Shown here: one piece after another, positions 41,714-63,877 of the stretch
Position numbering within the stretch: the first letter of the stretch is position 1
Layout of the letters: every line of letters begins with the position of its first letter
From: Gemmatimonadota bacterium
GTDB taxonomy: Bacteria > Gemmatimonadota > Gemmatimonadetes > Gemmatimonadales > GWC2-71-9
Length of the DNA stretch: 64,000 nt
Assembly: GCA_036679645.1 (NCBI GenBank)
Contig: JAZDCY010000013.1
Location: 48,419 to 112,418 of the forward strand
Direction: 5' to 3'
Program-made: the position numbers and the translations under genes
Notes under the pieces: model-generated
What the model was told of the DNA's origin: nothing
The model's database searches: none
What the model saw: the letters and a program-made list of their open reading frames with translations, nothing else

Positions 41714-41719
41714 CAGGAC

Positions 41720-43061: not shown

Positions 43062-45746
43062 CTAGTTCTCCACCTTCGCCTTCAACTCTGCAAAGAAATT
43101 CTCAACCGCGACCAGCTCTTGCCGATCCGTATCGATGATTCGGCGTACCATGATGAAGCGCCGATCGTCCGGGGTGACATCGTACATCTGTCGGTAGATG
43201 AAGCCGACATAGTCTCGCACCGAGAAGAGCACCCGAGGCTCTCCGTAGATGAAGGTCGATCCTTGCGTGATCTCCACGCTGACCAGTTCGTCGCTCCCGC
43301 TGCGGTAGAACAGCTCCCGCCCACTGTGTGCCCATACCGGCTCGGTACCGCCGGCCTCCGATACCTGCCACCGTCCGTCCACGGTGTTCGGAAACGGTCG
43401 GACCCACACCTCCGGTCGCCCGGTCGCGAGGGACACGTACGCCAACCATCGCCCGCCAGGCGAGAGTGCCGGCTGCGTCTCCTGTTCGTACGACACTACC
43501 AATGGGACCGGTACGCTGTCCACGCCGAGATGGACCCCATAGAGGTCGCTGTTACCGCCACCGCCCACCCGATACACCGCCCACCTGCCATCGTCCGAGA
43601 GTTGCCCTTCCAGTATCTGTGGCTCGTGATCGAGGAGTAGGTCGGCCGACCCAGTCCCGTCGGCACGCCTCCAATAGACGTTGTTGTGTCCGTCCCGATC
43701 GGTCGTAAACCCGATCGCCGTCCCGTCGGGCGTCCAGAACGGGCGATTGCCACCTTCAAACGTGAGCTTGGATGTTGGCCCGCCGTCGAGCTGCCTTATC
43801 CAGACTTGCCCGCTATGCGAAAACGCCAATCGGGATCCATCCGGAGAGAGAGCGAGCCCCTGTTCGAGCTGATCGGTCCAATCGGGATCGACTACGCGGA
43901 CGGCCCCGGCGCGCGTCACCCACACCGCTTCGGTGGAATCTCGCAGCCCCGTGCGGTTCATGTACATCAACGTCCCGCTGGTCGATACTACGATGTCGGG
44001 AACCCAGTCGGGTGCCCCGATAGTCGCGAGGAGCATTCCTTCGACGAGGACTGCTGCTTCGCCGGTGAGTGTCCGGGTACCGAGATCGAACCCTTGGGCC
44101 ATCAGGGTGCCTTCCCGGGTCACATAGAGGAGGTGTCCGGACGCAGCGTACCGGGCGTAGATCCCGGGCACCAGCATCGTGTGACGTCCGGTGGACACAT
44201 CGGCGACGGCGATCTGAGAGCTGAACGGGTTGTCCCGGAACTTGACGACGAACAATACGCCCCTGCCCTCCGGTAACGCCTCGGGCCAAACATGGTCCAC
44301 CTCCCCATTGGCCGAGTCCAACGTGGTGAACCACTCCGGCGTGCCCCCGGCCGCGGCCACTCGCACGAGGCTCGACTGGCCCTGGGCGTCGGCATAGATG
44401 AACCCATCCGTTCCCCATGACGCGCCCGCGACGCCCACGAGCGAGTCGGTGAGTCTGACGGCTTCGCCACCGCCGACCGAAGCGATTCGGATCGCGCCCC
44501 GTGGGCTGAAGAAACCCACCTGGTTGCCGTCCGGTGAGAAGAACGGTGCCTCCGCTCCCTCGGTACCTGCCATCGGTGTGCCATGCAGTTGATCCCGTGA
44601 CCGCATCCACAACTGACGCCCGCCGTCATCGTGCACGCCCAAGTACACCAGTCGCGAGCCATCGGGGGACAGCGCCAGCCGCGTGAACCAGCCGGCGATC
44701 TCTTCTCCCTTGGGAAACGCCATGGCGTACCGCAAGACCTGTGAAGTCGGCTCGACACGAGGACGCAGCCAGCCCCAGGCGGCGAGTGCGAGCGCGAGCA
44801 CGACGGTAGCGGCAAGTGCGGGTGGGAGGGCGGAACGGCGGAATGGCGGAAGGGCGGAAGGACTCGTGCCTGCGGCGCCGATGGTCGCGGCAAAGGCGGG
44901 ATCACCCAGCGCCTCGGCGAATTCCTTGGCGCTTGCGAACCGATCGGCGGCGAGCTTTTCCAGCGACTGCGCAACCGCCGCCGCCACGTTGGGTGGCACG
45001 GACTTCCGCAGCTTGGTAACGGGCTGGGCATCTTCCGTCACGATCTTCATGATGATCTGCTGCGCCGAGTTCCCCATGTGCGGCGGTTCGCCCGTCAGCA
45101 TCTCGTAGAGTACGCTGCCGAGTGAGTAGATGTCCGACCGGTTGGTGAGATCCTTCTCTGCCGTGGCCTGCTCGGGCGACATGTAGTGTGGCGTGCCCAG
45201 CGAGAGTCCGGTCTCGGTCATGCGACCCCCCGCCGCCGCACTCACAGCCAGCGCGATACCGAAGTCAGCTACCATGGGCCGGCCATCGTGCAACAGAATG
45301 TTCTCTGGCTTGATGTCGCGATGGATGACGCTGTTGCGGTGGGCGTAGTCGAGCGCGTCAGCGACGTCGGTCGTGATCCGTACCGCTTCGTCTATGCTGA
45401 GCTGCGTCTCGCGATCCAGCTTTTCGCGCAGCGTCTCGCCGTCGACATACGGCATTACGTAATAGAGGAACTCCGTCTCGCCATCCCGCCTTCCCGCCGT
45501 CCCACTGTCGAACAACGGCAGGATGTGCGGGTGCTGGAGACTTGCCGTGGTCGTGATTTCCTGCACGAAGCGTTCGGCGCCGAGCACAGCAGCGAGTTCC
45601 GGTCGCAGCACTTTGACCGCGACCTTACGTTTGTGTTTCAGGTCCTCGGCGAGATAGACCGTGGCCATACCGCCTTCGCCGAGGAGGCGCTCGATCTGGT
45701 AGCGATCGGCGAGGGCGGTGGAGAGCTTGGCGGTGACATCAGACAT
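43062..45746 (-). CDS. Receptor-like Ser/Thr protein kinase (Hanks type) with TM helix and TolB/PD40 propellers (kinase 1)
   Basis: GEGGMA, VAVK, HRDIKPEN, DFG, SPE; TM segment; many SPDG repeats. Confidence 0.93.
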   Translation of the reverse strand: MSDVTAKLSTALADRYQIERLLGEGGMATVYLAEDLKHKRKVAVKVLRPELAAVLGAERFVQEITTTASLQHPHILPLFDSGTAGRRDGETEFLYYVMPYVDGETLREKLDRETQLSIDEAVRITTDVADALDYAHRNSVIHRDIKPENILLHDGRPMVADFGIALAVSAAAGGRMTETGLSLGTPHYMSPEQATAEKDLTNRSDIYSLGSVLYEMLTGEPPHMGNSAQQIIMKIVTEDAQPVTKLRKSVPPNVAAAVAQSLEKLAADRFASAKEFAEALGDPAFAATIGAAGTSPSALPPFRRSALPPALAATVVLALALAAWGWLRPRVEPTSQVLRYAMAFPKGEEIAGWFTRLALSPDGSRLVYLGVHDDGGRQLWMRSRDQLHGTPMAGTEGAEAPFFSPDGNQVGFFSPRGAIRIASVGGGEAVRLTDSLVGVAGASWGTDGFIYADAQGQSSLVRVAAAGGTPEWFTTLDSANGEVDHVWPEALPEGRGVLFVVKFRDNPFSSQIAVADVSTGRHTMLVPGIYARYAASGHLLYVTREGTLMAQGFDLGTRTLTGEAAVLVEGMLLATIGAPDWVPDIVVSTSGTLMYMNRTGLRDSTEAVWVTRAGAVRVVDPDWTDQLEQGLALSPDGSRLAFSHSGQVWIRQLDGGPTSKLTFEGGNRPFWTPDGTAIGFTTDRDGHNNVYWRRADGTGSADLLLDHEPQILEGQLSDDGRWAVYRVGGGGNSDLYGVHLGVDSVPVPLVVSYEQETQPALSPGGRWLAYVSLATGRPEVWVRPFPNTVDGRWQVSEAGGTEPVWAHSGRELFYRSGSDELVSVEITQGSTFIYGEPRVLFSVRDYVGFIYRQMYDVTPDDRRFIMVRRIIDTDRQELVAVENFFAELKAKVEN
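44828..44859. repeat. Octamer tandem repeat (NGGCGGAA x4) in the kinase 1 linker
   Basis: gggcggaa cggcggaa tggcggaa gggcggaa. Confidence 0.85.
45473..45504. repeat. Octamer tandem repeat (CCNTCCCG-like x4) inside the kinase 1 N-lobe
   Basis: ccgtctcg ccatcccg ccttcccg ccgtccca; gives DSGTAGRRDGETEFLYY versus DSGEADGFLYY in the paralogs. Confidence 0.8.
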
Positions 45747-45750
45747 TGTT

Positions 45751-45787
45751 GGCAAAGATAGGGTTCGCTGCACGACACGGCGAGAAC
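45751..45787 (-). promoter_or_regulatory. Conserved kinase promoter, copy 1
   Basis: Minus strand gttctcgccgtgtcg...cccTATCTTtgcc, with the hexamer 8 nt before the ATG; recurs five times in the window. Confidence 0.75.
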
Positions 45788-45811
45788 ACTATCTCATCAA
45801 AGAGCGGTCAG

Positions 45812-46432
45812 CTAAGGCGCCCAACGCCGGACCTCCTCCTCGAGTCGAGCTCGGATGCCCGGCCAGCCGACCTTGTGGAGCATCCGCGGCATGGGCTCCT
45901 CCTCGGCATCCTCGAAGTAGACCAGGCTCCGGAGTAAATGGATCGCGTTGAACGAGACATTCGCATAGCGCCGTCGTACAATCTCCATCAATCCCGGGAA
46001 ATCACCGCCGACCTCCAGATAGGCGTACAGATCGACGAAATCCTTGCGGCTTCCCCGCCCGGCAATGGCGATGATCTTCATCGCCGCGATGTCCCGAGGA
46101 TCCGCCAGTCGCAGGCCGCGATACTGAAGAGGCGGATAAAGAAACGGTGTCTCTGAGCAAAGATAGCTCAGGTGAATCCCGTTCAGCCGGACATGCAGCG
46201 TGTTCTCGTTCTGGTATTGGATCTCGAGTGCACCGAGAGGCGTGAGTGATCTCCGCAACTCGCCGACGTCGAACCCGTCATCGTTGAAGAAACCGAGATC
46301 AATGGAGACTCGGTGACCGAGCTGCAGGGCCAATCCGGTTCCCCCCGCGAGAGTCCAGGGCTCGAGGAGTCCCGCCCCGTCGAGCTGGCGCACGAGCTTC
46401 CAGACCTCCTTGGGCAGGACGCGCGGATTCAC
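45812..46432 (-). CDS. AbiEii/AbiGii-family nucleotidyltransferase toxin (second catalytic Asp replaced by Gly)
   Basis: LAGGTGLAL.LGHR.S.DLGFF and MK...RG.RKDF.DLY; GTGA overlap with the antitoxin. Confidence 0.85.
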   Translation of the reverse strand: MNPRVLPKEVWKLVRQLDGAGLLEPWTLAGGTGLALQLGHRVSIDLGFFNDDGFDVGELRRSLTPLGALEIQYQNENTLHVRLNGIHLSYLCSETPFLYPPLQYRGLRLADPRDIAAMKIIAIAGRGSRKDFVDLYAYLEVGGDFPGLMEIVRRRYANVSFNAIHLLRSLVYFEDAEEEPMPRMLHKVGWPGIRARLEEEVRRWAP

Positions 46433-46929
46433 GGACGCGCCCGGGTCGGACCCAGGATCACGTGCCACAGCCGGCGGGTGCGGGCATCCATGGAACGATG
46501 GGCTGCCGCATCACGGACCGCATCGTCGCCGAAATGCATTCGTACCCGTCGCACGGCCAGCCAATCCCCGAATCGCAGAACCCGGCGCAGGACCCATTGC
46601 GGATTCTCGTCCAGATGTTCGGGCTTCAGATCGACGTCCCAGAAGAGGGGCCGCAGCTTCCGGACGAGTTGAGCCGGCGATGCATGGTCAGCGGAGCCGT
46701 CGGGGCGAAGAGGATCTAGGCTGATGTCCAGCCGGGCATCGAGCGCGGCGGCAAGACGGCGCAGCGTGCGCAGCTCGAATCGCCCCCAGCCACTCTCGTA
46801 GCGGTGTATTGCCGAGACACTGCTGCCGATCTTATCAGCCAACTCCTTGAGGGATAGTCCCTTACGCTGGCGCAAACTCCTGAGACGTGGACCCAGCAGG
46901 GGACCGGTGCTCCCTGAAATAGTTCTCAT
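46429..46929 (-). CDS. Xre-HTH plus DUF6922-like antitoxin
   Basis: LRQRKGLSLKELA..IG.S.S.I.RYESG; LFWDVD...VLRRVLRFGDW. Confidence 0.82.
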   Translation of the reverse strand: MRTISGSTGPLLGPRLRSLRQRKGLSLKELADKIGSSVSAIHRYESGWGRFELRTLRRLAAALDARLDISLDPLRPDGSADHASPAQLVRKLRPLFWDVDLKPEHLDENPQWVLRRVLRFGDWLAVRRVRMHFGDDAVRDAAAHRSMDARTRRLWHVILGPTRARP

Positions 46930-46966
46930 ATATGAGAATATATGTTAGGGCGCTCGTCTCAATCAA
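46923..46966 (-). promoter_or_regulatory. Promoter and palindromic operator of the Xre/AbiEii pair
   Basis: Perfect 16-bp palindrome TTCTCATATATGAGAA (46923-46938) over the start codon; TTGATT-N18-TATATT on the minus strand. Confidence 0.7.
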
Positions 46967-46995
46967 GCCACGTTGACGAAAGCCGAGCGGCACTC

Positions 46996-49662: not shown

Positions 49663-49666
49663 GGTC

Positions 49667-49703
49667 GGCAAAGATAGGGTCCAGCTAGCGACACGGCGAG
49701 AAC
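49667..49703 (-). promoter_or_regulatory. Conserved kinase promoter, copy 2
   Basis: + strand ggcaaagatagggt...cgacacggcgagaac. Confidence 0.75.
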
Positions 49704-49799
49704 GCCCCTGGCCCCTTCACACGAAAAGGAATGGATGACGGCGACGAGCGGCAAGGAGATGTGCAGACAACATGAGCGCCTTCGCCAAGCAGATCGGCA

Positions 49800-51226: not shown

Positions 51227-51235
51227 TTTTCTGCC

Positions 51236-51877
51236 ATGAAATTTGCGAAACTCCTGGACACAGTCGGAGACCTGCCGCTGTTCCGTGGCAGCCTCCTCCT
51301 GGCGGGCGACGTGGACCCAGCGGACGTGAGGCGGCAACTCGCCCGGTGGAAGGCGTCCGGCAAGGTACTCCAGCTGCGCCGCAACCTTTACGTCCTCGCC
51401 CCCCCGTGGCGACGCGTCCAGCCTCATCCGTTCTTGATTGCCAACGAACTCCAGCGTCCCTCCTATGTGAGCCTCCAGTCCGCCTTGGCCCACTACGGTA
51501 TGATTCCGGAAGCCGTTCCGGTGACCACGTCCGTCACCACAGGCCGTCCGTTCCGATGCGAGACGCCGCTCGGCCAATACATCTATCGTCACATCGCTCC
51601 GCCCGCCTTCTTCGGATACGGCCAAGTGCCCGTGCTACGCGACCAGCATGCTCTCGTCGCGGACGCCGCCAAGGCACTGCTCGATCTGGTGTATCTGACA
51701 CCGGGCGGGGAATCCCCGGAGCACCTGAGATCGCTCCGCCTGGAAGATCTCAGTACCATCCCGCGGCAATCGTTGTGCGACCACGCCCGCCGATGGGGCA
51801 AGCCCAAGGTCAGCAGGGCGATTGCACGCATCGTGGGGATGCAGGAAGCGGTTACGGCAGAGGACGTTCGCTCGTGA
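51236..51877 (+). CDS. abiEi: Type IV TA antitoxin (AbiEi-like)
   Basis: wHTH QLARW..SGKVLQLRRNLY; PSYVSLQSALAHYGMIPE; KALLD.VY. Confidence 0.85.
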   Translation: MKFAKLLDTVGDLPLFRGSLLLAGDVDPADVRRQLARWKASGKVLQLRRNLYVLAPPWRRVQPHPFLIANELQRPSYVSLQSALAHYGMIPEAVPVTTSVTTGRPFRCETPLGQYIYRHIAPPAFFGYGQVPVLRDQHALVADAAKALLDLVYLTPGGESPEHLRSLRLEDLSTIPRQSLCDHARRWGKPKVSRAIARIVGMQEAVTAEDVRS

Positions 51878-52695
51878 GGGAGCAACTGCTCGACATCGTG
51901 CGGCGTACCGAGAACCCCGTACTCGGTCGGAACCTGGCGCGCGAATACCTCCAGGCGCGGCTCCTGCTGGCCCTCCAGGAAGCAGGGGCCATGATTCCTC
52001 TGGCGTTCCAGGGCGGCACGGCCTTGCGGTTCCTTTTTGGCCTGCCGCGTTTCTCGGAGGATTTGGATTTCGCCCTCCAGCGATTCCACCGCGGCGGTTT
52101 CGACTTCGCGAGGACGGGTGAACGCGTGACCGCGCAACTCAGGAGCGAAGGTTACGAACTCGTGACGAGACGCAAGACCGGGCACGTGATCGAGAGCCTC
52201 ATGATCGGCTTCACCGGACTGTTGCACGAGGCGGGGCTCTCACCTCGCGCTTCGCAGCGGATGAGCATTCGGATCGAGGTCGATACGAAACCGCCGGCGG
52301 GGGCGCATCTCGCAACCAGCATCGTGCGTCGCCACGCGCTGCTCAACGTGCAGCACCACGACCGTGCCTCTCTACTCGCCGGGAAATTGCACGCGATTCT
52401 CCAGCGCGCCTGGGCCAAGGGTCGTGACCTCTTCGACCTGTTCTGGTACCTGAGCGATGCGAGGTGGCCGGGTCCCAACCTCCTTTTGCTGAACAACGCG
52501 CTGCGGCAAACGGGGTGGGAAGGGCCTTCGCTGGATGAGTCGACGTGGAGATCGGTGATTCGCGACCGGGTCGCATCGGTGGACTGGAAGACTGCGGAGC
52601 GAGACGTGGCGCCGTTCCTCGAGCCGGATCCCGCCGTCCGCCTCTTCGGGAAGCAGCGTCTGCTGGAACTGCTGGACGCTTCGCGTGCGACGTAG
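51874..52695 (+). CDS. abiEii: Type IV TA nucleotidyltransferase toxin (AbiEii-like)
   Basis: FQGGTALR...RFSEDLDF and K..A..R...RDLFDL; GTGA overlap with the antitoxin. Confidence 0.88.
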   Translation: MREQLLDIVRRTENPVLGRNLAREYLQARLLLALQEAGAMIPLAFQGGTALRFLFGLPRFSEDLDFALQRFHRGGFDFARTGERVTAQLRSEGYELVTRRKTGHVIESLMIGFTGLLHEAGLSPRASQRMSIRIEVDTKPPAGAHLATSIVRRHALLNVQHHDRASLLAGKLHAILQRAWAKGRDLFDLFWYLSDARWPGPNLLLLNNALRQTGWEGPSLDESTWRSVIRDRVASVDWKTAERDVAPFLEPDPAVRLFGKQRLLELLDASRAT

Positions 52696-52904
52696 CCCTG
52701 GCGTTCCCGTCACCCGCCCTATCCGCTTTCGACCACGCCCGCAGCGCGCTACCCCTTCGGCCGCAGCAACCTGCTGGAACGGCGGGTAGTCACGAAGGGA
52801 CTCCAGGGTAGCCGCAAATCTACGTCCCGAAATGGTACACGAAGGACAACAACGGAATCGGGAAGCCTTTAAGCTCTTGTCCTCCTCACCGAACGTCCCC
52901 ACAG

Positions 52905-53313
52905 ACGTCGCTCGCAATGCTGGTGGCATCGTCGATCGTGAGTTGCTTCTCCCGATTCAGACGATCCCGGAAGGTTTCGCCCTCCACATACGGCATGACG
53001 TAATACAAGAACCCGCCGGCTTCGCCGGAATCATAGAGCGCGAGAAGGTGGGGATGGTGGAGATTGGCGGCGACCTGGATCTCCCGGAGGAACCGCTCCC
53101 AGGGGATGGCGGTGGCCAGCTCGGGCCTCAGCACCTTGAGCGCGACCCTGCGTTGGTGCTTCAGATCGTCCGCCAGAAAACCCCACTCCCGCCCTCACTC
53201 CCCACGATCGGATCGGGCCGTCATTGGCACGTGAAGCGACCGTCATCTGACCGTCATCTGAAAGAGGGTTCGCGTAGAGGCGGCGGTCGGCGAGTGTGGT
53301 TAATTTCGGGCAT
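52905..53313 (-). pseudogene. Degenerate kinase gene, 5' part
   Basis: ATG CCC GAA ATT...LADR at 53313; ~100 bp of unrelated sequence replaces the Gly loop; then FLADDLKHQRRVALKVLRPE...TSIASDV. Confidence 0.8.
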
Positions 53314-53317
53314 GGGG

Positions 53318-53386
53318 GCCAAACATAGGGTTCGTCCTGGCGACCGGCGAGTAACGTCACCGCAACATGGCACCCTACTGGCACAC
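53318..53386 (-). promoter_or_regulatory. Kinase promoter copy 3 plus TGGCAC direct-repeat pair
   Basis: gccaaacatagggttcg..cgaccggcgagtaac and tggcaccctactggcacac (53368-53386). Confidence 0.7.
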
Positions 53387-53458
53387 GAGCGCAAAGACTG
53401 AGCGGCGGGGGGCTTTGAACTTCCTAGCCTCCGGCATCGCGTGTGGAGAGGGTTTCCG

Positions 53459-54421
53459 ATGAGTGCTCGGATCCTGAATGAGACAGAATTGCGGCAGGCG
53501 GTCGGCATCAATGACGAAGCCCTCGCGGCTGTCGAGGCGGCGTTCAGTTGGCTGCAACAGGATCGAGTCAGCATGCCGCCGATCATGCACATCTCTGCGA
53601 AGGACCAAAACGGCGACATCGATGTAAAGAGCGCCTACGTAAAAGGTATGCCGTATATCGCCATCAAGATCGCTTCCGGCTTTTACGACAATCCGGCGAA
53701 GGGGTTGCCGGCGGGCAGCGCCATGATGGTATTGCTGAACGCAGAGACCGGTTTTTGCGAAGCAATCCTGCTGGATAACAGCTACCTCACCGACTTGCGG
53801 ACCGGCCTTGCCGGAGCCGTAGCCGCCAAATACTTGGCGCCATCTGCTGTCGATACCGTCGGCGTTATCGGCACCGGCGTGCAAGCGCGCTACCAAGTGG
53901 AATGTCTGGCGCTACTACGAGAGTTCAAGAGCGTACTGGTGTGGGGTCGGTCCCGGGAGAAAGCGCAGACATACGCCGCCGAAATGACCGCGACGCATGG
54001 TCTAGACGTTCGGGTCAGTGATTCGCCTAGTGATGTTGTCGCGGCCAGTCAGGTTGTGATTACAGCAACCGCCAGCGACCGGCCACTGATCACGGCCGAT
54101 GACCTGCATGCGGGCCTGCATATCACCGCGGTCGGTGCCGACTTCCCCGGTAAGCAGGAGCTGGATTCAGAGCTGTTGTTGAAGGCGGACAAACTGGTCT
54201 GCGACACCCTGTCACAATGTCGTGCCAATGGGGAAGTTCAGCATCTGTTGCAGGATGGCGAACTCCCCGCCGGTCTCGACATCATCGAGTTGGGAGAACT
54301 GACCATCGGTGCGCGGAAGGGACGTGCGGCGGATGACGAAATCACCATTTGCGACCTGACCGGAACGGGCGTGCAGGACACCGCGATCGCCAATCTCGCG
54401 TATAAAGCTGCGACGCAATAA
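53459..54421 (+). CDS. Ornithine cyclodeaminase/mu-crystallin family protein (EutC-like)
   Basis: KIASGFYDN, LTDLRT, GTGVQA, GAD..K.E and DLTGTGVQD motifs. Confidence 0.9.
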   Translation: MSARILNETELRQAVGINDEALAAVEAAFSWLQQDRVSMPPIMHISAKDQNGDIDVKSAYVKGMPYIAIKIASGFYDNPAKGLPAGSAMMVLLNAETGFCEAILLDNSYLTDLRTGLAGAVAAKYLAPSAVDTVGVIGTGVQARYQVECLALLREFKSVLVWGRSREKAQTYAAEMTATHGLDVRVSDSPSDVVAASQVVITATASDRPLITADDLHAGLHITAVGADFPGKQELDSELLLKADKLVCDTLSQCRANGEVQHLLQDGELPAGLDIIELGELTIGARKGRAADDEITICDLTGTGVQDTAIANLAYKAATQ

Positions 54422-54469
54422 GTCACCGTTTTCGCGCGGTCGACATCTACTCCTTGGCCCTCTTGTTGT

Positions 54470-55447
54470 TCAACACCGAATGATCCGTTTGAACACTTCC
54501 AGATCGACGTTTCGTCCGCAGACGACGGCCACAACTTTCTTCCCCTTGAATCGCTCTCTCCGTTTGAGAAGACCCCCAACACCCAAGGCTCCCGAACCTT
54601 CGACCACCAGGCGATGCTGCTCGAAGAGAAGGCGAATGGATTCCTCGATCTCTGACTCGCTGAGCAAAACAATTTCCTCCACGTATCGCTGACATAGCTC
54701 TAGAGTGATGCTGTCCAGATCCACGCCGCCACCGCAGGTGTCAGCAAGCGTTGGATAGGTTTCCATCTCGACCATCTTCTTGGCCCGCATGGACTCATAC
54801 ATTACTGGGGAATTCTCGGGGGAGACGCCGAAGGCCTGTACGTTGGGGTTATGGCACTTCAGCCACCCCGCCGACCCGGTCAGCAAGCCCCCCGCTCCGC
54901 AAGCGAAGAGGGCTGCGTCCAGATCGGGGAGTTGCTTGGAGATCTCGTACCCGCACGTGCCTTGTCCGCCGATCACGATGGGGTCGTTGTAGGGTGACAC
55001 ATAGATCTTGTCTTCCTCCCCCGCAACCCGTCTGGCCTCCCTCTCCGCGTCCCAGGCACGTTCGCCGTGAATGACCAGATCCAAGCCATGGGCCCGCAAC
55101 AGCTCCAGACGCGACGGCTCGATATCCTCGGCCACGTAGATTGTGGCGCGGCGTTTTCGAATTCCCACTGCCTCGGCAACCGCCAAGGCGTAGTTCCCTG
55201 TCGAGGCGGAGACGACCCCCTTGTCGAGTTCAGACTCGGTGAGTGAGAGGATCTTGTTGAGGGCTCCACGGAACTTGAAGGAAGAGGTTCGTTGCATCGA
55301 GTCCAACTTGAGCCAGACCTCGCCCTCGATCTCCTCGCTCAGATACATCGAGTATTCGAGAGGAGTGGGTGAAAGGTGGCCCTTGCATCTTTCGTTGGCT
55401 TCCAGGACCAATTGCGGCACGTCCAAGGGTTGTTCACCGGTCGTCAC
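54470..55447 (-). CDS. PLP-dependent threonine/serine dehydratase family protein
   Basis: SFKFRGA, ASTGN, GQGT, GAGGL and CGRN motifs. Confidence 0.9.
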   Translation of the reverse strand: MTTGEQPLDVPQLVLEANERCKGHLSPTPLEYSMYLSEEIEGEVWLKLDSMQRTSSFKFRGALNKILSLTESELDKGVVSASTGNYALAVAEAVGIRKRRATIYVAEDIEPSRLELLRAHGLDLVIHGERAWDAEREARRVAGEEDKIYVSPYNDPIVIGGQGTCGYEISKQLPDLDAALFACGAGGLLTGSAGWLKCHNPNVQAFGVSPENSPVMYESMRAKKMVEMETYPTLADTCGGGVDLDSITLELCQRYVEEIVLLSESEIEESIRLLFEQHRLVVEGSGALGVGGLLKRRERFKGKKVVAVVCGRNVDLEVFKRIIRC

Positions 55448-55519
55448 GATCGTTCCCTCACTCGCGGAGGTGCGTCACCGAGAACATTCGCCTTCTTCGC
55501 GACTCGGCGACCGGTGCGC

Positions 55520-56177
55520 CTAACAAACGCTTCCGAGCGCGACGCGAACGGCTTCGCCGCTGACGCCGCTCGACTCTTCCGACGCGAAGAAAGCGATCAT
55601 CTCGGCGACCTCCTGAGGCGTGGCGACGCGGCCCGGTGGATACAGGGCAGCCCGGTCCTGCCATAATGCCGTGCGTGCCCGCGTCCTGTGCTATCGATCG
55701 CATCAATCCGATTAATCCGTGTTTGGCTACCGTGTATGCGCTTCCCGCGTATTCGGCGACCAGGCCGGCCGTCGAACTGGTGTAGACGAGACGTCCGTAG
55801 CTGCGTTCGACCATGCCGCGCAGCACCAACCGCGAGAGGTGAAAGGGTCCGTCGAGGTTGATCTGCATCGTCTCGCTCCAGACCTTCGGATCCTGCTCCC
55901 AGATCACCCGCTCGTGGGCCGAGCCGATACCGTGATTGCAGACGAGGATGTCGATCGGTCCCAAGCAGCGCTCGGTTTCCGCTACGGCAAGCGCACAACC
56001 ATCGGGCGTACCGAGATCCGCTACCGTGTACTCGAGACCGAGCGCGGCCAACTCCTGTTCGCTGCGCGAGATGCCCATGACCCGAGCGCCACGCGCCGCC
56101 AGCAGCTCCGCGACCGCGCGCCCAATGCCTCTGCCTGCGCCCGTGACGAGCGCGATCCGGCCCTCGACTCCTGCCAT
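55520..56177 (-). pseudogene. SDR oxidoreductase with internal deletion and frameshift near 55664
   Basis: TGAGRGIG and YTVAK present; the NAxxPG segment is missing; the C-terminus GRVATPQEVA...SGVSGEAVRV is in another frame. Confidence 0.8.
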
Positions 56178-56434
56178 ACTCCGAACCTCCATTGTGTGCG
56201 AGACATCCACTCCAAGTAGTCTAGCACTCACGATCACCGCCGGAGGGGATGGACGGTGTTCGGAGAAGCACGACTCAAACGATCAGGCTGCCAATATGTA
56301 CTATAGACAATCCGGCGGACAAAGAAGTTGGCGAGCAAGGAACGGCTAAGGGACCGTGCTGGTCGGCTCGTGTCTGGCAGGGTTATTCTTGCTGCTGTGC
56401 GTGGAACTACTGACCCCTCAGCGAGGACGTCGTC

Positions 56435-58312
56435 ATGCTTGCGTCGCTTCTTGTCATTGCCGCCCTGCAGTCTGCCACTCAGCAGGTGCAGGACACGTCG
56501 CCCTTCCGGGCGCTCGACCTGCCCGCGCCCAACGCCTACCGCGCCGCCGACGGCCGCCCGGGGCCCGACTACTGGCAGCAACGCGTGGACTACCAGATTG
56601 CGGCGACCCTCGATCCCGCGACCCAGGTACTCACCGGAACCGAGACGATCCGCTACGGGAACAACTCGCCGCACGCGCTGCCTTATCTGTGGATCTTGCT
56701 CGACCAGAACATCTGCGACCCGGGAAGTATCACGAATCAATTGAATCAGCCGCCGCTCGTGTTCGAGGACGTTACGTTCGATTTCTCGTGTCAGGGGTTC
56801 GAGGGCGGCATCACGCTGCGGCACCTGCGTAGCGGAGGCGCCGACCTGGCGCACTCGGTCTACGGCACGACGATGCGAGTGGAATTGCCGGCGCCGCTGC
56901 AGCCGGGCGCTACGTTCTCCCTCGAGATCGGCTGGACCTTCCGCGTACCCGAGATGGGAGCCGGCCGCATGGGTCGTGACGGGACGCTGTACGAGATCGC
57001 CTGGTGGTATCCGCGGATGGTCGTGTACGACGACGTGCGCGGCTGGAACCACGATCCTTTCATCGGCGGGGGCGAATTCTACCTCGAGTACGGCGGGTTC
57101 GACGTCACGATCGAGCTCCCCGCGGACTACGTCGTGGCCGCGACGGGCGTGCTCCAGAACCCGGCGGACGTGCTGACGGCGGTGCAGCGTGAGCGGCTTG
57201 CCCGTGCGGTGCGGTCCAGCACGCCGGTGGCCATCATAGCGGCGGACGAGGCCGGATCACCGCAGACGCGACCTACGCGAGGCGGTACGCGCTCCTGGCA
57301 CTTCGTGGCCGACAGCGTGCGCGACTTCGCCTTTGCCGCCGCTCCCAACTTCCGCTGGGATGCCGTCGGCTGGGACGGCATCCTCATCGAGACACTCTAC
57401 CGGCCTGGGGCGGCGGGCTGGGAGGAGGCCATCCGCATGGCGGAGCATGCCATCCGCCACTTCAGCGAACGGGTGTACCGCTATCCATACCCGCATGCCA
57501 CCACCATCGAGGGACCGATAGCCGGGATGGAATACCCGATGCTCACGTTCGTCGCGGGCACCGATCGGGAGAACCTCTACTTCACCTTGATGCACGAGTT
57601 AGGGCATGAGTGGTATCCCATGCTGGTCGGATCGAACGAGCGGTTCTATCCGTGGATGGACGAAGGATTCAACATGTTCATCGACATCGGTGCCACCGAG
57701 GACTACTTCCGCGGCACGCCGTACGGGGACGGCTACGCGCAGGGGCTGGTGGAGGCCTACCCGCAGCACGCCGTCCCCGGACTCGAGCAGCCGTTGATTA
57801 CCCGCCCGGTGGAGTCACGCGACCTCTGGTCGACCGCGTATACCAAACCCGCGTTGATGTTGAACCTGTTGCGCAGGGAAGTACTGGGCGAGCAGCGATT
57901 CGACGATGCGTTCCGCGCCTATACTCGTGCATGGGCGTTCAAGCATCCCACCCCAGCCGATTTTTTTCGTGTCATGCGAAACGAGACCGGCATGGATCTC
58001 GACTGGTTCTGGCGCGGCTGGATCTACACCACGGCGCGGCTGGATCAGGCCATCGATTCCGTGACCGCCGGCGCCGACGGTCCGGAGATCCACCTCAGCA
58101 ACCGCGGGAGGATGGTGATGCCGGCTGAGCTGGCCGTCACCTTCGCAGACGGGACCCGGGATACGGTCCGGCTGCCAGTGGAGATGTGGAATCTCGGCTC
58201 CCGGTTTACCTACCGGGTGCAAGGCGGCCGTGGGATGCCTACGACTGTCGCACTCGATCCGCGTGCGGTGTATCCAGACGCGGACCGATCCAACAACCGC
58301 TGGCCCCGGTAG
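56435..58312 (+). CDS. M1 family metallo-aminopeptidase, secreted
   Basis: GMEYP, HELGHEW...WMDEG and AYTKP motifs. Confidence 0.92.
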   Translation: MLASLLVIAALQSATQQVQDTSPFRALDLPAPNAYRAADGRPGPDYWQQRVDYQIAATLDPATQVLTGTETIRYGNNSPHALPYLWILLDQNICDPGSITNQLNQPPLVFEDVTFDFSCQGFEGGITLRHLRSGGADLAHSVYGTTMRVELPAPLQPGATFSLEIGWTFRVPEMGAGRMGRDGTLYEIAWWYPRMVVYDDVRGWNHDPFIGGGEFYLEYGGFDVTIELPADYVVAATGVLQNPADVLTAVQRERLARAVRSSTPVAIIAADEAGSPQTRPTRGGTRSWHFVADSVRDFAFAAAPNFRWDAVGWDGILIETLYRPGAAGWEEAIRMAEHAIRHFSERVYRYPYPHATTIEGPIAGMEYPMLTFVAGTDRENLYFTLMHELGHEWYPMLVGSNERFYPWMDEGFNMFIDIGATEDYFRGTPYGDGYAQGLVEAYPQHAVPGLEQPLITRPVESRDLWSTAYTKPALMLNLLRREVLGEQRFDDAFRAYTRAWAFKHPTPADFFRVMRNETGMDLDWFWRGWIYTTARLDQAIDSVTAGADGPEIHLSNRGRMVMPAELAVTFADGTRDTVRLPVEMWNLGSRFTYRVQGGRGMPTTVALDPRAVYPDADRSNNRWPR

Positions 58313-58326
58313 CAATCGGTTCGCGG

Positions 58327-58377
58327 CCCCGCGCCGAGTTCGCGTTCGATTCGGTAGCGGTCGGCGAGGGCGCTGGA
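58327..58377 (-). pseudogene. Kinase N-terminal remnant
   Basis: SSALADRYRIERELGAG, ending in the Gly-rich loop. Confidence 0.75.
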
Positions 58378-58386
58378 CTTCCCCCG

Positions 58387-58406
58387 GGTCGGGACGGCCG
58401 GATTCG
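58387..58406 (-). repeat. tRNA-Pro 3'-end copy (att-like, from the T-loop)
   Basis: cgaatccggccgtcccgac is identical to 63833-63851. Confidence 0.85.
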
Positions 58407-58418
58407 TGACCTCGCCCA

Positions 58419-59816
58419 CTACCGGTTTTCCAGCCCCCGAATCATCTGTACAACGTCTCTGGCGAGTTCGTTGGGTATCGGGATGGTCAGGTGGTACTGC
58501 GTGATTCTCCATTCGTCGACGACGAGGCGCAGGACTCCCGTCCCGCGGGTCTCACCGTAGTTCTCGTTATCCAGAATCTCATCGAACCACGCGACCGAGC
58601 CACTGGGATCGAAGTCGATGTTCCGGCCACCGTCGCGTAGCGCGTAGGTCCAACCCTGTCCGCGCTCGAAGGACGGGTGGGCGTAGGAACGGAATTCCTC
58701 CACTGTCCAACGTTCCGACGCGTCGGTGCCAAAGAACACACCTTCGGGAGCGAACAACGCGAAATAAGATTCCTCGTTGGCAATGGACGCGTTGTGGTGC
58801 AGCGCGTCGAGCACGCTTGAGACGCCGGACGTCGCCTCGGCGCGGTCGAACGCCACCGATTCCCGGTCGCCGGCGTTGGTGCGCGCCACACCGGTTGCCG
58901 TCGCCAGTTCTTCCAGAATGCCGTGCTCGACCAGGAAATCCATGATGGTCGCATACGCACGCATCGACTGCTCAGCGTTGAAGCCACCGTGACCACCACC
59001 GGGGATCGTCACGAGACGGTTCGCCACCCCCGCCGCGTCGAGCGCCTCCTGCAAGCGCGTAGCGTGCGAATAGGGAACGACGCCATCCGCGTCGCCGTGA
59101 ATCGTGATCGTGGGAGGCAATCCGCTCCGGATGTAGGTGAGCGGGGATACCCGCCGGGCGATGGCGTCCCGATCGGGCATGCTGCTGAGCCAAGCCACCG
59201 CATAGCTCTTGGTGTTGGGCCCGTCGATCAGATCGGCCACGTCGGTAATACCGTACCAATTAATGATCGCCGCCACGCTCACGTCGTCGAGCCCGACGCA
59301 CTGCCGATCGAGCCCCGCAGACGCTGGTAGCATCCCGGTCGTCAGCGAAAGGTGCCCACCCGCCGAATGACCGGTCACGACGATGCGACTAGTATCGATA
59401 CCATAGTCGTCGGCGTGCCGTCGTACCCACCGTAACGCGCACCGCGTGTCCTCCACCGCCGCGGGCGCGAGAGAGACGCGACCCAGCCGGTATTGTACGT
59501 TTACAGCAACAAAACCGTTCGCCAGGTAGGGCAGAAGGGCGAAGGCCGACCGCTCCTTGCTTCCCCCAACCCACCCACCGCCGTGGATGTAGATCACCGT
59601 CGGTTGCGGACCTTGCACGCCGCGCGGCTGGTAGATGTCGAGTGTCAGCTGGAAGTTGTTGGCGGTCAGGTAGGGAATATTGGAATGGATACGGTATCCC
59701 CGCCCGAGATCGACGGCCCATTGCGTGCGCTCATCCAATTGAGCGCCGGCAGGGGCTGCAACGACTACAAGCGCGATAGTAACGAGTGCCACCATAGCAT
59801 CAAAACGACGTGTCAT
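58419..59816 (-). CDS. Secreted alpha/beta hydrolase (BD-FAE-like esterase) fused to a SnoaL/NTF2 domain
   Basis: HGGGW, GHSAGG, HGDAD and GGGHG; C-terminal GTDASERW..VAWFDE..RGTGVL. Confidence 0.88.
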   Translation of the reverse strand: MTRRFDAMVALVTIALVVVAAPAGAQLDERTQWAVDLGRGYRIHSNIPYLTANNFQLTLDIYQPRGVQGPQPTVIYIHGGGWVGGSKERSAFALLPYLANGFVAVNVQYRLGRVSLAPAAVEDTRCALRWVRRHADDYGIDTSRIVVTGHSAGGHLSLTTGMLPASAGLDRQCVGLDDVSVAAIINWYGITDVADLIDGPNTKSYAVAWLSSMPDRDAIARRVSPLTYIRSGLPPTITIHGDADGVVPYSHATRLQEALDAAGVANRLVTIPGGGHGGFNAEQSMRAYATIMDFLVEHGILEELATATGVARTNAGDRESVAFDRAEATSGVSSVLDALHHNASIANEESYFALFAPEGVFFGTDASERWTVEEFRSYAHPSFERGQGWTYALRDGGRNIDFDPSGSVAWFDEILDNENYGETRGTGVLRLVVDEWRITQYHLTIPIPNELARDVVQMIRGLENR

Positions 59817-59856
59817 CAGACCTCTCCTGGGGATATCACCTTGTTGTCACTGTCAG

Positions 59857-59931
59857 GCCTTCGCCGAGGCGGCGTTCAATCTGGTAACGGTTAGCTAGGG
59901 CGGTTGAGCGCCTGGCAGTAACGTCAGCCAC
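59857..59931 (-). pseudogene. Kinase N-terminal remnant (25 codons)
   Basis: VADVTARRSTALANRYQIERRLGEG followed by unrelated sequence. Confidence 0.85.
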
Positions 59932-59935
59932 GGTC

Positions 59936-60092
59936 GGCAAAGATAGGGTTGGATTCGCGACACGGCGAGAAACGCGATTTGGAATCTGGCACACTATTGG
60001 CACACAACGACACGGAATGGGCAGACCAAACGGGCCGCCTATTTCGTAACTACGTCTGCTTGTTCAGCTTGCCCGAGGACATCCGAATTCGA
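59936..60092 (-). repeat. Module copy: degenerate tRNA end, hairpin, TGGCACAC repeats, kinase promoter (copy 4)
   Basis: Colinear with 63576-63732; tggcacactattggcacac at 59987-60005; ggacatccgaattcga at 60077-60092 (13/16 match to the tRNA end). Confidence 0.8.
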
Positions 60093-60219
60093 TGACTCCG
60101 GCATTGTTGTGGTGACGGTCCCCTCTGCGTACGGCCGCATAGTGGGTGGGTCATGACCCCACGGCTATCCCACAGGAGCAATACCGAGCGCCCGGCTCGC
60201 CGAGCCGTGACCGTAACGT

Positions 60220-60248
60220 TTGACGTTAATAACGCTATGCGTTATTAT
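60220..60248 (+). promoter_or_regulatory. higBA sigma70 promoter with operator
   Basis: TTGACG-N17-TATTAT ending 5 nt before the GTG; palindrome TAATAACGC-tat-GCGTTATTA. Confidence 0.85.
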
Positions 60249-60253
60249 TCTTC

Positions 60254-60535
60254 GTGATCAAGAGCTTCCGGGACAGGCTCACCCAGAAGGTCTTTGAGCG
60301 CCAGCGCGTGCGCCATCTACCGCGTGGCGTGCATCGCGCAGCCTTGCGGAAGCTCGTGATCCTCGATGCCGCGGAAGAACTCGGTGACCTGCGGATCCCA
60401 CCGGGGAACCGGCTCGAGAAGCTTTCGGGCAAGCGGGCGGGACAGTACAGCATCCGGATCAACGAGCAGTGGCGGATCTGTTTCCGGTGGGACCGCGGGG
60501 ACGCCTACGACGTGGAGATCGTCGACTATCACTAG
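60254..60535 (+). CDS. higB: HigB (RelE-family) toxin
   Basis: MIKSF, PPGNRLEKL.G and YSIRIN.QWRICF.W..VEIVDYH. Confidence 0.93.
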   Translation: MIKSFRDRLTQKVFERQRVRHLPRGVHRAALRKLVILDAAEELGDLRIPPGNRLEKLSGKRAGQYSIRINEQWRICFRWDRGDAYDVEIVDYH

Positions 60536-60544
60536 GAGCTATTG

Positions 60545-60844
60545 ATGGCGCCCAAGAAACAGTCGCCCGTGCACCCTGGGGAGGTGCTTCTTGCCGAGTT
60601 TCTCGAGCCAATGGAACTCAGCCAGTATCGTGTTGCCAAAGACATTAGCGTACCGGCACGGCGCATTAATGAGATTGTCCACGGAAGCCGAACGATAACG
60701 GCGGATACGGCGCTGCGCTTGGCGCGCTACTTCGGGACATCGGAGCGTTTCTGGCTCAATCTGCAGACCCGCTACGATCTCGAGGTCGAGAAGGATCGCC
60801 TGGGTCGCCGGCTAGAAGAAGAGGTGTTGCGCCGCGCGGTCTAG
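60545..60844 (+). CDS. higA: HigA antitoxin
   Basis: HPGEVL, RINEIV.G.R.ITADTALRL and FWLNLQ..YD. Confidence 0.93.
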   Translation: MAPKKQSPVHPGEVLLAEFLEPMELSQYRVAKDISVPARRINEIVHGSRTITADTALRLARYFGTSERFWLNLQTRYDLEVEKDRLGRRLEEEVLRRAV

Positions 60845-60852
60845 TGGGTCAG

Positions 60853-60939
60853 TTCGGATCATGGGCCGCGACCCATCAGGCGAGCGGCGGACGGCGGGGT
60901 GGTGGTGAGTGGGGTGGCCGTCAACCGGCGACCCCCTGA
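60853..60939 (-). repeat. Degenerate copy of the tRNA fragment and downstream spacer
   Basis: 60923-60939 is identical to 63852-63868 (17 bp); 60853-60889 matches 63729-63765 at 33/37. Confidence 0.85.
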
Positions 60940-61020
60940 TGCGATGCCGGAGCGCAGCGACGGCGAGCACGAGCGCCATCGCCACATGATGGCGATGTGC
61001 GGTCAACCCCATGGTCGCCC

Positions 61021-63571
61021 CTACTTCCCCACCTTCGCCTTCAACTCCTCGAAGAAGTTCTCGACCACGATGAGCTGCAGGTCGTCGGCTGCGTCCCCTC
61101 CCAGAACGCGGATCATCACGAAGCGCTGCCCGTCCGGCGTGACGTCGTACATCTGATGATAGATGTCGGCCCGGTACGCCTGTGCGTCGAACAGGGTTCG
61201 TTGTGCACCCGTCACAAACGCTTCGCCTGGCAGCACCTCCACGGCCACGAGCCGTTGCGCACCATCCCGGTAGAACAATTCGCGGCCACTGTGCGCCCAC
61301 ACTGGCTCCGAGCCACCGCTGGTCGATACCAACCACCGACCATCTGCGACGTTGGGAAAGGGCCGCACGTAGACTTCTGACCCACCTGTTTCGTTGGATA
61401 CGTACGCCAGCCAGCGGCCGTCGGGAGAGACTGCGGGTGCAGTCTCCTGAAATTCGGTGGCAACTAGGGGAACCATCGCGCTGTCGCCAGCCGTGCGAAT
61501 AGCATAAAGGTCCGCGGAAGGTCCCCCGCCCTACCGATTCACGAGCCACGAACCGTCGCGCGTGAAGCGGGCCTCGTGGACTGCGCGTTCTACGTCTAGC
61601 ACCAGCTCAGCATCCGCGGTGCCGTCGGCACGACGCTGGGCGATATCGCGGTCCCCCTGCCGGTTGCTCACGAAGGCTACCGACCGGCCATCGGGGGTCC
61701 AGTCCGGCCTGTAATTCAGCACGCCCTGGAACGTCAACTTCGACGCAGTTCCCCTCGCGAGCTGTCTGACCCATAGCTGTTCCTCCCCGCCGGCGGCGAT
61801 GGAGACGGCGAGCTGGGTCCCATCACCCGAAAGCGCGAGGCTTGTAACAGCATCTGTCCAGTCGGCTGCCACCGCCTCGGCCCTCCCGTCTCGATCCACC
61901 CAGACCGGCTCGCCACCCACTGAGGTAGAACCGCCAACTGTGTACGCCAGCGTCCCGTTACGCGACACTGCCAGATCCGGAACACTGAGCGTCCTCAGGG
62001 CGATCCCATCGATCAGAGCCGTGGGATCGCCCGTGATCGCCATAGCATCCTGATCGAACGGCACCGCCATCAGCGTTCCGTCGGCCGTCACGTACAGCAG
62101 ATGTCCAGAGGCCGCGTACCTTGCGTAGTTGCCACGAAGGAGCACCTCGTGGGTGCCAGTTGCCGTGTTGGCGATCGCGATATTCGACTCGCTGGAGCTC
62201 GTTCCGGGCCCGACGGTGAACACCACCCCTTTTCCGTTGGGCAACGCGTCGGGGAAGAGGTGATCGATCTCTCCGCTCGCCGAGTCAAGCACCGTAAACC
62301 ACTCGGGCGCGCCCCCTGCGGCCCGAACCCTTACGAGTGCGGTCGCACCATCGCCGTCAGTATAGATGAAGCCATCCGGTCCCCAGGATCCGCCCGCAGC
62401 GCCCACCAGCGAGTCGGTCACCCTAACCGGAGGTCCGCCCCGTAACGGAGGCGATCTTGAGACCGTCGCCTAAGAATCCCACGTGGTCCCCGTCGGGAGA
62501 AAAGAACGGTGCGAACGCTCCCTCCGTACCTGCGAGCGCCGTCGCGTCCAGCTGATCGCGCGGCCGAACCGAGAGCTGGAACTGACCGCCGTCACCTTGA
62601 GTGACGTAGACCAACTGCGACCCATCCGGCGACAGCGCGATTCTCGCGAAGAACCCGGCGATCACCTGGCCCTCCGGCAGCAACACGCTGTATCGCGACA
62701 CGGGCTTGGGCGGTGCCGGTCGCGTCATCGACCATGCCGCGACGCCCGTCATCACGACCAGTCCCGCAGCGAAACCGATCGTCCAACGGTTCCACTGAGA
62801 TGCGGCCGGCGGCGCAACCACCTGCGCGGCTTGCGTCGTCGGAAGCGTGAACGCTGGATTGGTCAGCGCCTCGGCGAACTTTGCCGCACTCTCGAACCGA
62901 TCTGCTGCAAGCCGCTCCAACGACTTCGCCGTGGCCGCCGCAACATGGGGTGGCACCGACTTGCGCAACTCTGTGACCGGGCGTGCGTCATCGGTCACGA
63001 TTTTCATGATGATCGCCTGCGCCGACCCACCGATGTGCGGCGGCTCGCCCGTCAGCATTTCGTACAGCACACTACCCAACGAGTAGATGTCCGAACGGTT
63101 GGTCAGGTCCTTCTCCGCCGTCGCCTGTTCGGGCGACATGTAGTGCGGGGTGCCGAGTGAGAGACCAGTCTCGGTCATCCGCCCACCCGCTGCCGCACTC
63201 ACCGCCAAGGCGATACCGAAGTCCGCCACCATCGGACGACCATCGTGGAGGAGAAGGTTCTCGGGCTTGATATCACGGTGGATCACATTGTTCCGATGCG
63301 CGTAGTCGAGCGCGTCCGCGATGGCGGTGGTAATGCTGACTGCCTCGTCGATGGAGAGTTGCGTTTCGCGGTTCAGCTTGTCCCTGAGCGTCTCGCCTTC
63401 GATGTACGGCATGACGTAGTACAGGAACCCGTCGGCCTCGCCCGAATCAAACAGGGGCAGGATGTGGGGGTGTTGGAGATTGGCGGTGGTCTTGATCTCC
63501 TGCACGAGGCGGCGCTCGATCTTGTATCGGTCGGCAAGGGCGGTCGAGAGCCTGGCAGTCACGTCAGTCAT
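61021..63571 (-). pseudogene. Receptor-like Ser/Thr kinase with PD40 propellers, pseudogene
   Basis: In-frame deletion of the Gly loop and VAVK (IERRL|VQEI); extra G at 62438-62441; in-frame TAG at 61531-61533. Confidence 0.9.
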
Positions 63572-63575
63572 GGTC

Positions 63576-63732
63576 GGCAAACATAGGCTGCGATTCGCGA
63601 CACGGCGAGAACGCCATTTGAATTTGGCACACTATTGGCACACAAGGACAAGAAATGAGCGGCCACTCACAGACCGCTCATTTCTAAGTAGTTGTTGCCT
63701 TTCAGGTTACGTAGTCGGGACGGCCGGATTCG
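63576..63732 (-). repeat. Module copy: tRNA-Pro 3' end, 12-bp hairpin, TGGCACAC repeats, kinase promoter (copy 5)
   Basis: tRNA end 63713-63732; stem agaaatgagcgg/ccgctcatttct 63651-63685; direct repeats 63625-63643. Confidence 0.85.
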
Positions 63733-63789
63733 GATCATGAGCCGCGAGCCGCCAGGCGAGCGGCGTTGACGAAAGCCGGGCGGCCCAGC

Positions 63790-63831
63790 CACAGACAAGA
63801 AAAGCGGGCACCGCCCGCTTTCTTGTCTGTG
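63790..63831 (-). terminator. Long hairpin terminator directly after the tRNA fragment
   Basis: cacagacaagaaa(a)gcgggc-acc-gcccgctttcttgtctgtg. Confidence 0.8.
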
Positions 63832-63832
63832 A

Positions 63833-63877
63833 GTCGGGACGGCCGGATTCGAACCGGCGACCCCCTGAACCCCATTC
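63833..63877 (-). tRNA. 3' half of tRNA-Pro(GGG), partial; probable att site
   Basis: gaATGGGGTtcagg gggtc gccggTTCGAATccggc cgtcccgA covers anticodon loop to acceptor; no D-arm or 5' acceptor strand upstream. Confidence 0.85.

Follow-up and report, generated by a model that had tools for sequence, protein, structure and literature searches.

We analysed a stretch of 64,000 nt from a Gemmatimonadota genome (assembly GCA_036679645.1, contig JAZDCY010000013.1, positions 48,419 to 112,418), below called the window, which forms the final 64 kb of its contig (C6 in our numbering; the genome is G000, its relatives are G001 onwards, and L numbers designate loci). On the minus strand of its right-hand part, genes for receptor-like Ser/Thr kinases and remnants of such genes lie among toxin-antitoxin (TA) pairs and pieces of tRNA-Pro(GGG). 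We consider it probable that this part of the window represents the decayed far end of an island stack at tRNA-Pro(GGG). In one family of island left ends, the predicted promoter and the first kinase codons probably serve as a landing pad, at which sensor kinases are exchanged by homologous recombination. In the best reading of our data, the attachment (att) cores, the arm repeats and the variability between strains are explained by site-specific accretion of islands, the mosaic genes, the stubs and a part of the cargo turnover by homologous recombination, and the present state by decay.

A fixed predicted promoter and kinase gene start behind island left ends

The preliminary description of this DNA proposed that a module made of a tRNA-Pro 3' end, a hairpin, direct repeats, a promoter and a kinase gene start recurs in the window. 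Its parts indeed do so. The five promoter and kinase start sites (45746, 49662, 53313, 59931 and 63571) are exact matches to a motif with six matches across the 4.05-Mb genome, the sixth preceding another kinase gene on C19, and the three direct-repeat pairs GTGCCA-N5-GTGCCA (53368, 59987 and 63625) are found nowhere else in the genome. Five tRNA-Pro(GGG) pieces were likewise recovered: one at 63833-63877, two extending from the T-loop to the 3' end (63714-63731 and 58388-58405), a split one (60853-61012) and a degenerate one (60073-60090), recognizable solely by its register with the module. The hairpins behind tRNA pieces folded better than shuffled sequences (z-scores of -4.6 and -5.9), and the split piece had a z-score of -0.7. 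TA pairs (HigBA, AbiEi/AbiEii and HTH-DUF6922/AbiEii) and enzyme cargo lie between the modules, as described. The module as a whole, however, is intact only once, at 63571, where the kinase is a pseudogene. Behind the starts at 59931 and 53313 there are only stubs, a sixth kinase stub lies behind the tRNA piece at 58388, and the two intact genes K1 and K2 (45746 and 49662) have the promoter, with neither a repeat pair nor a tRNA piece in front.

From public data we obtained 40 distinct left ends after removal of duplicates, two of which are chance matches outside the phylum. A kinase start with a score of at least 45 was present 66-71 nt from the repeat at 9 of the 40 left ends, compared to 7 of 600 random windows, and weak kinase stubs at the same offset were found at 6 further left ends (15/40 in total). 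Four of the kinase-linked left ends have a full kinase domain, and one left end is cut by the contig end.

The non-coding part of this arrangement (the handle, 144 nt) is 95% identical between G044 and G045, which have 96% identical recA genes. It fronts a kinase of the tetratricopeptide repeat (TPR) type versus one of the PD40 type, and the bodies of the two kinases are 60% identical. Across genera, the handles of kinase-linked ends show 67-81% identity, as compared to 49-73% at third positions of recA. The conservation extends into the gene: in six handle-type genes distributed across body clades, codons 1-22 had an identity of 0.78 versus 0.65 in random draws (p=0.0007), and identity among handle-type kinases falls past approximately codons 15-45. 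This 5' mosaicism, which was overlooked in the preliminary description, points to homologous recombination as a second engine of change. Further, a -10-like element, [CT]ATCTT, is located 5-11 nt 5' of 15 out of 54 kinase starts, versus 0.2% of all ATGs, and this placement suggests a leaderless promoter.

Direct repeats, integrases and integrase-free units

The combination of a tRNA-Pro 3' end with a TGTGCC pair was present at 25 loci in genome contigs and at 19 in metagenome contigs; viral contigs contained no match to the repeat-pair pattern alone. An island of 14.8 kb in G041 extends from the intact tRNA over the left end, restriction-modification cargo and a tyrosine integrase (L086:16388-17473) to a right end, where the TGTGCC pair occurs again together with a remnant of att. 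An island in G031 is built alike, and its integrase is 55% identical to that of G041. Since both ends of these integrase islands carry the TGTGCC pair, it is likely an arm-type integrase site, as had been supposed for the direct repeats of the window. Five right ends align as a single family with a mean column identity of 70%. A role of the pair as a transcription-factor operator is less likely, because it also marks right ends without promoters.

An integrase of the G041 type was not found in this assembly, in which the best matches are 27-30% identical, and C6 gave no match to PF00589. Of 201 genomes of the order, 9 encode this type at a threshold of E<=1e-40, and identity exceeds 50% in two of these. 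Complete integrase-free kinase units of 3.0-5.8 kb exist in G044 and G045. One of them (L083, 5.8 kb) harbours two kinase genes between matching arms, and two others (L052 and L046) one kinase gene each and hybrid arms, the right end being of the family that belongs to the C7 integrase described below. At L053 an att core directly follows the kinase stop codon, as at 61021 in the window. The small non-autonomous kinase elements postulated earlier have counterparts in integrase-free, two-ended units of relatives, but the units in the window are mostly decayed: att cores bound some of them and a right arm is present in none, while L083, L052 and L046 keep both ends.

No integration or transfer genes were detected in the window units by the PF00589 search of C6 and a Pfam scan of the window open reading frames (ORFs), and there were no phage-type genes among the scanned ORFs. 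Integron identity was not borne out either, the linked integrases falling far under the NCBIfam cut-off for IntI and the junctions being tRNA-derived. Excised circles and attP junctions, proposed as a check in the preliminary description, were sought in contigs, which drop rare forms; no excised form and no in-register excision joint was seen there. The sole joint on C7, from 1233 to 3883 (side 20 nt), was not counted as an excision product because its register deviates from that of the att repeat by 22 nt, and joints from the sequencing run X1 were dismissed as they are located in kinase coding parts and fit other paralogues.

The tRNA-Pro(GGG) hotspot

The intact tRNA-Pro(GGG) gene and a linked tyrosine integrase, which the preliminary description had proposed to look for beyond 64 kb, are both on C7 of the same genome. 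The tRNA (C7:3879-3953) is followed by a GGGGTGCCGTTT repeat pair, by the integrase gene (PF00589) and its cargo, and then by another such pair and an att piece that bears a mini-repeat. This att piece and its mini-repeat (C7:1086-1252) are 91% identical to positions 63714-63877 of the window, and the orientation of C7 is compatible with a join between C7 and C6. At least two att copies are present at tRNA-Pro in several relatives, and homologues of the C7 integrase were found at the same tRNA in G032, G033, G042 and G044. The hairpin inserts which split the tRNA-Pro piece at 60853-61012 were found again in G002 and G044. On the upstream side of tRNA-Pro, genes are common to this genome and the same-genus genome G002, while the 12 kb behind the tRNA in G002, up to the contig end, contain no kinase gene. 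In agreement with the earlier proposal, the content at tRNA-Pro varies among relatives, including this same-genus genome. The locus combines a target tRNA with displaced 3' fragments, a linked integrase and variable content, and by these three characters it is a hotspot for tRNA-targeting tyrosine-integrase islands.

Two further repeat structures were noticed at such sites. At L066:3979-4434, L021, L024 and L034, 5' halves of tRNA-Pro are repeated upstream of the intact gene and have hairpin inserts in the D- or the anticodon loop. The mini-repeat (approximately 100-120 nt), which stands after tRNA 3' ends, comprises a hairpin, an imperfect inverted copy, a GCTCGC hairpin and a second T-loop/3'-end copy. 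It was found in the window at 63714-63832, in G000 at C7:1086-1206, C28:30368, C7:240183 and C50:3001, and at L021, L029 and L086. In this genome it is present behind 3 of 50 tRNA calls, and in G041 it is amplified in tandem.

The receptor kinases and their paralogues

K1 and K2 retain the catalytic motifs GxGG, VAVK, HRDIKPEN and DFG, followed by one hydrophobic helix at approximately residues 303-327 and a PD40/TolB-like part. The structure model of K1 (mean predicted local distance difference test score, pLDDT, 90.8) shows a kinase domain like that of PknB, a helix at residues 308-327 and a C-terminal part that is all-beta. The sequence of this last part matches TolB, and its fold resembles tandem LRP6 propellers. 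With catalytic motifs, a single transmembrane (TM) helix and, according to the predicted topology, an outer sensor domain, both proteins have the characters of Hanks-type receptor kinases, and they are predicted to be membrane receptor kinases with an outer beta-propeller sensor. Matches to PADLOC PD-T4-6, which might have indicated a role in defence, were set aside as generic kinase-domain matches.

Full-length kinase-PD40 genes number 36 in this genome and form 13 groups. The largest group comprises 11 genes on C8, where neither a tRNA was called nor a tRNA fragment listed, and mosaic kinases are also found on C4, C7, C8 and C24. In 28 hand-picked stubs, the ends are spread over codons 16-147, with 18 of the 28 at codons 16-30, and on account of this scatter we rejected site-specific recombination within the kinase gene. 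Seven of 44 stubs, a number which includes misclassed divergent kinases, are located within 500 nt of an ARAGORN tRNA call, a space corresponding to 1.1% of the genome. PIN toxin genes are located at most 1 kb from a kinase start in 10 of 26 cases (6% expected). Since kinase-TA mixtures and stubs are present genome-wide, the birth and death of kinase genes does not need tRNA-Pro. The proposal that integration at tRNA-Pro builds the kinase repertoire was therefore not upheld: the repertoire and its interleaving with TA genes extend over the genome and are mostly tRNA-independent.

Several observations on kinase loci are reported here in their own right. Approximately codons 20-60, which encode the glycine loop and the catalytic lysine, were lost in-frame in three separate kinases (window 63571, G000 C75:28776 and L082). 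Kinase arrays free of tRNA, with the order stub-TA-stub-kinase and with repeats of the repetitive extragenic palindromic (REP) type or heptamer repeats between the genes, are located at G000 C8:46881-83289, C75:49906-55839 and C4:100270-110306. Two more kinase arrays, L067 (C24:27345-33219) and L068-L069 (C7:159502-187478), lie behind tRNA-Lys(TTT) and a tRNA-Lys(CTT) fragment; they contain a GGGCCCCAAA repeat pair and a promoter of their own, which recur within the array. The strict form of this repeat pattern was found in 0 of 200 other genomes. Of 61 genomes with a match, the best 30 loci, from 28 relatives, were inspected, and none of these relatives had a kinase start behind tRNA-Lys(TTT). 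Finally, tRNA-like cloverleaves (ARAGORN Val/Ala) were found at G000 C11:12621-12709, C32:56781-56866, C7:211519-211607, C47:754-841 and C59:8760-8848. At least those on C11, C32 and C7 are followed by a segment complementary to their own anticodon arm and by a terminator hairpin, an arrangement which we take to be C4/CI antisense-like, and have kinase stubs nearby.

Proposed mechanism and alternative explanations

The following course of events would account for the window. Several families of tyrosine-integrase islands would have entered successively at the 3' half of tRNA-Pro, leaving att cores and arm repeats behind, as is seen in relatives and as we infer for the window. An island with TGTGCC arms may then have acquired a kinase gene, placed 71 nt behind the left arm, and this end may have spread or been inherited across genera. 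Crossovers at approximately codons 15-45 would swap the kinase body, bringing in a PD40 or a TPR sensor; they are favoured by the conserved 5' end that dozens of paralogues in this genome have in common. The mosaic genes are observed directly, and crossovers are the mechanism we infer for them. Deletions and insertions would leave slots made of a promoter and a stub ahead of TA pairs and enzyme genes. Loss of the integrase and of the right arm would fix most units, so that two-ended units could be mobilized only in cis or by an incoming integrase.

Several points weigh against this proposal. Twenty-five of the 40 left ends bear other cargo (extracytoplasmic function (ECF) sigma factors, restriction, transport and other genes), and several of the 15 kinase-linked ends come from close relatives. 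The permutation set consists of six genes which are non-independent kin and include the arm-less K1 and K2, and the kinase tree is a quick version. That the handle is so well conserved might be due to spread, but equally to selection acting on a locus passed on vertically. Moreover, C6 and C7 both end in sequences that we take to be IS-like (IS, insertion sequence), and their join is not closed by synteny: to the left of the array, conservation ends with the MatE gene (window 24809-26251), which in both G001 and G002 lies away from the tRNA. Two closed relatives hold att clusters 200-550 kb from the tRNA.

One could also assume dedicated small non-autonomous elements which leave the chromosome and return to it as circles with the help of a trans-acting integrase, and which actively build the kinase repertoire at tRNA-Pro. 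The complete integrase-free two-ended units of G044 and G045, the fixed geometry across genera, the frequency of the ends despite the rarity of the cognate integrase (9/201 genomes, two above 50% identity) and the similar att-repeat-promoter-kinase layout at two tRNA-Lys sites of this genome all argue for such elements. We nevertheless regard them as unlikely, given that the right arm is missing from every window unit, that the arms belong to different families in 2 of the 3 complete units, that the contigs contain no in-register excision joint, and that most full-length paralogues are in arrays without tRNA pieces. The tRNA-Lys(TTT) layout, moreover, was absent from the 28 relatives, and viral contigs gave no match.

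Somewhat less probable still is a single ancient capture of the promoter behind an island end, followed only by recombination of the RecA type, acting on the 5' ends of kinase genes and on repeated ends, with the att pieces as vertically inherited passengers. The genome-wide stubs, mosaics and TA neighbours (including the 10 of 26 PIN genes close to kinase starts), the absence of the cognate integrase from this assembly, and the agreement of the G044/G045 handle identity with that of recA (95% and 96%) would fit. But what stands in front of this left end differs among genomes: in some it is the intact tRNA, and in others a right end, with at least three different island families represented. 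Repeated site-specific events are therefore needed; in addition, the same-genus genome does not have this left end at tRNA-Pro. The preliminary description named simple tandem duplication with decay as a possibly sufficient alternative. K1 and K2 do share the promoter, the 5' end (91% in codons 1-22) and 88% of the kinase domain. Their sensor domains, however, are 40% identical and rank only 8th and 12th for each other among 39, the best match of the pseudogene is on C8 (61-70%), and the cargo between the units is unrelated. Local duplication of one kinase gene is thus largely refuted by these sequences, and we regard it as very improbable.

Our proposal of island accretion followed by homologous swapping invites an extension to the phylum: Gemmatimonadota may diversify their receptors in two tiers, in which integrase-free ends with a promoter and a kinase 5' end travel between genomes via borrowed tyrosine integrases, and the handle receives, by homologous recombination, any one out of thousands of sensor ectodomains. 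The sensor domain forms 15,186 clusters at 50% identity (E<=1e-30). We offer this extension tentatively and hold it to be rather doubtful; if true, it would amount to a mobile expression slot for signalling receptors.

Features of the window and quality of the assembly

The features are listed in Table 1. Contigs of run X1 cover the unique parts of the window at a depth of 94-105 with zero differences, and they span the junctions 53368, 58388 and 59987-61012. A collapsed misassembly gave no sign of itself in these contigs, although X1 is possibly the source sample and hence not independent. An Rfam search returned no match of note. Left of the array, the genes at 26300-43060 have no synteny in two same-genus genomes, so the variable region may reach approximately 17 kb further left. 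At 37899-38579, a 300-nt tandem duplication (91%) lies within a lipocalin-like gene, the 3' end of which resembles the last codons of the kinases.

Table 1. Features at the right-hand end of the window, listed from right to left (positions are those of the window)
Feature	Position	Strand	Basis and remarks
IS end at contig break, presumably IS21-like	63887..64000	+	sequence; one copy in assembly
att core, tRNA-Pro(GGG) nt 31-75, begins in anticodon arm	63833..63877	-	93% vs intact tRNA on C7
Hairpin and mini-repeat, ending in second T-loop/3'-end copy	63714..63832	-	C7 comparison, folding
Island left end: spacer, terminator-like hairpin, TGTGCC direct-repeat pair	63625..63713	-	likely integrase arm site
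Predicted leaderless promoter, CTCGCC...TATSTT, 8-9 nt 5' of ATG	63572..63624	-	putative function
Kinase-TM-PD40 pseudogene	61021..63571	-	sequence comparison; approximately codons 21-60 lost in-frame, frame break at ~62440, stop at ~61531
att core interrupted by hairpin inserts, 8 nt past kinase stop, no right arm	60853..61012	-	
HigB/HigA TA pair, flanked by two att-derived pieces	60254..60844	+	profile matches
Degenerate att piece, repeat pair (59987), promoter (59931), kinase stub (codons 1-25)	59857..60090	-	
Esterase (BD-FAE) and SnoaL cargo gene, immediately behind 59931 stub	58419..59816	-	
18-nt att piece joined to kinase stub (~codons 11-24; stub at 58373)	58330..58405	-	
Cargo: M1 peptidase, broken short-chain dehydrogenase, pyridoxal phosphate (PLP) enzyme, ornithine cyclodeaminase family	53441..58312	.	
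Degenerate repeat pair (53368), promoter (53313), decayed kinase N-lobe	52886..53385	-	
AbiEi/AbiEii type IV TA pair	51245..52695	+	
Zinc-ribbon-kinase-TM gene, 390 aa	49800..50972	-	unrelated kinase of a different subfamily
Promoter (49662) and intact kinase-TM-PD40 gene K2, 888 aa	46996..49710	-	
HTH-DUF6922 and AbiEii-family nucleotidyltransferase pair	45812..46929	-	
Promoter (45746) and intact kinase-TM-PD40 gene K1, 894 aa	43062..45790	-	

Comparison with known systems

In the orphan-module arrays of Rhs, CdiA and MafB, recombination in the conserved part of the gene swaps a variable C-terminal domain. The leftovers described here differ in being 5' stubs with promoters, whereas those arrays contain silent 3' modules; what varies here, moreover, is a predicted sensor and not a toxin. 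Integrons also have variable cassette arrays with TA pairs. At the loci analysed here, however, no integron integrase or attC-type site was identified; the att cores are tRNA-derived and accompanied by arm repeats, and the units bring their own promoter.

Cis-mobilizable elements (CIMEs) that arise with tandem accretion are integrase-less units which keep their att sites. They stack at a tRNA 3' end, their junctions are chimeric, and some members have decayed (Guedon et al. 2017, PMC5704250). Integrase-less units with att cores at a tRNA 3' end occur in both systems, although two-ended units are those of the relatives (L083, L052 and L046) and not those of the window. In contrast to CIMEs, the left end described here has a fixed promoter followed by the 5' part of a gene from a family of paralogues, the body of the cargo gene is a mosaic, and no conjugation genes were seen. 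In additive flexible genomic islands at tRNA genes, cassettes vary in number and nature, and partial tRNA repeats mark the hotspot (Lopez-Perez and Rodriguez-Valera 2016, PMC4898812). They share the hotspot of variable cassettes with our locus, but a conserved promoter and gene-start handle is not part of their description in the sections considered. A close parallel, with stacked islands carrying an expanded paralogue family, is provided by the ssrA locus of Dehalococcoides, where tandem islands are bounded by repeats of the target 3' end and many have no integration module; 15 islands and 38 rdhA genes were counted (McMurdie et al. 2011, PMC3146451). There the histories of integration modules and cargo are discordant (PMC3146451). 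The Dehalococcoides islands employ serine recombinase modules, ssrA and catabolic cargo, as opposed to tyrosine integrases, arm repeats, tRNA-Pro and signalling kinases in our case, and unlike in those stacks, most kinase paralogues here are outside of the island stack.

In the literature within reach, which left subscription journals and preprint supplements outside, we found no description of a fixed promoter and gene-start handle inside an island end. The turnover mechanism proposed here would explain the large undescribed signalling repertoire of a mostly uncultured phylum, and if an island end indeed supplies a whole signalling family with a standing promoter and gene start, the domain shuffling of receptor kinases would be tied to site-specific mobility. 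The stacking of islands at tRNA genes is already known, and what the present analysis adds to it is the cognate integrase family of the arms, complete integrase-free units and the discordance between handle and body.

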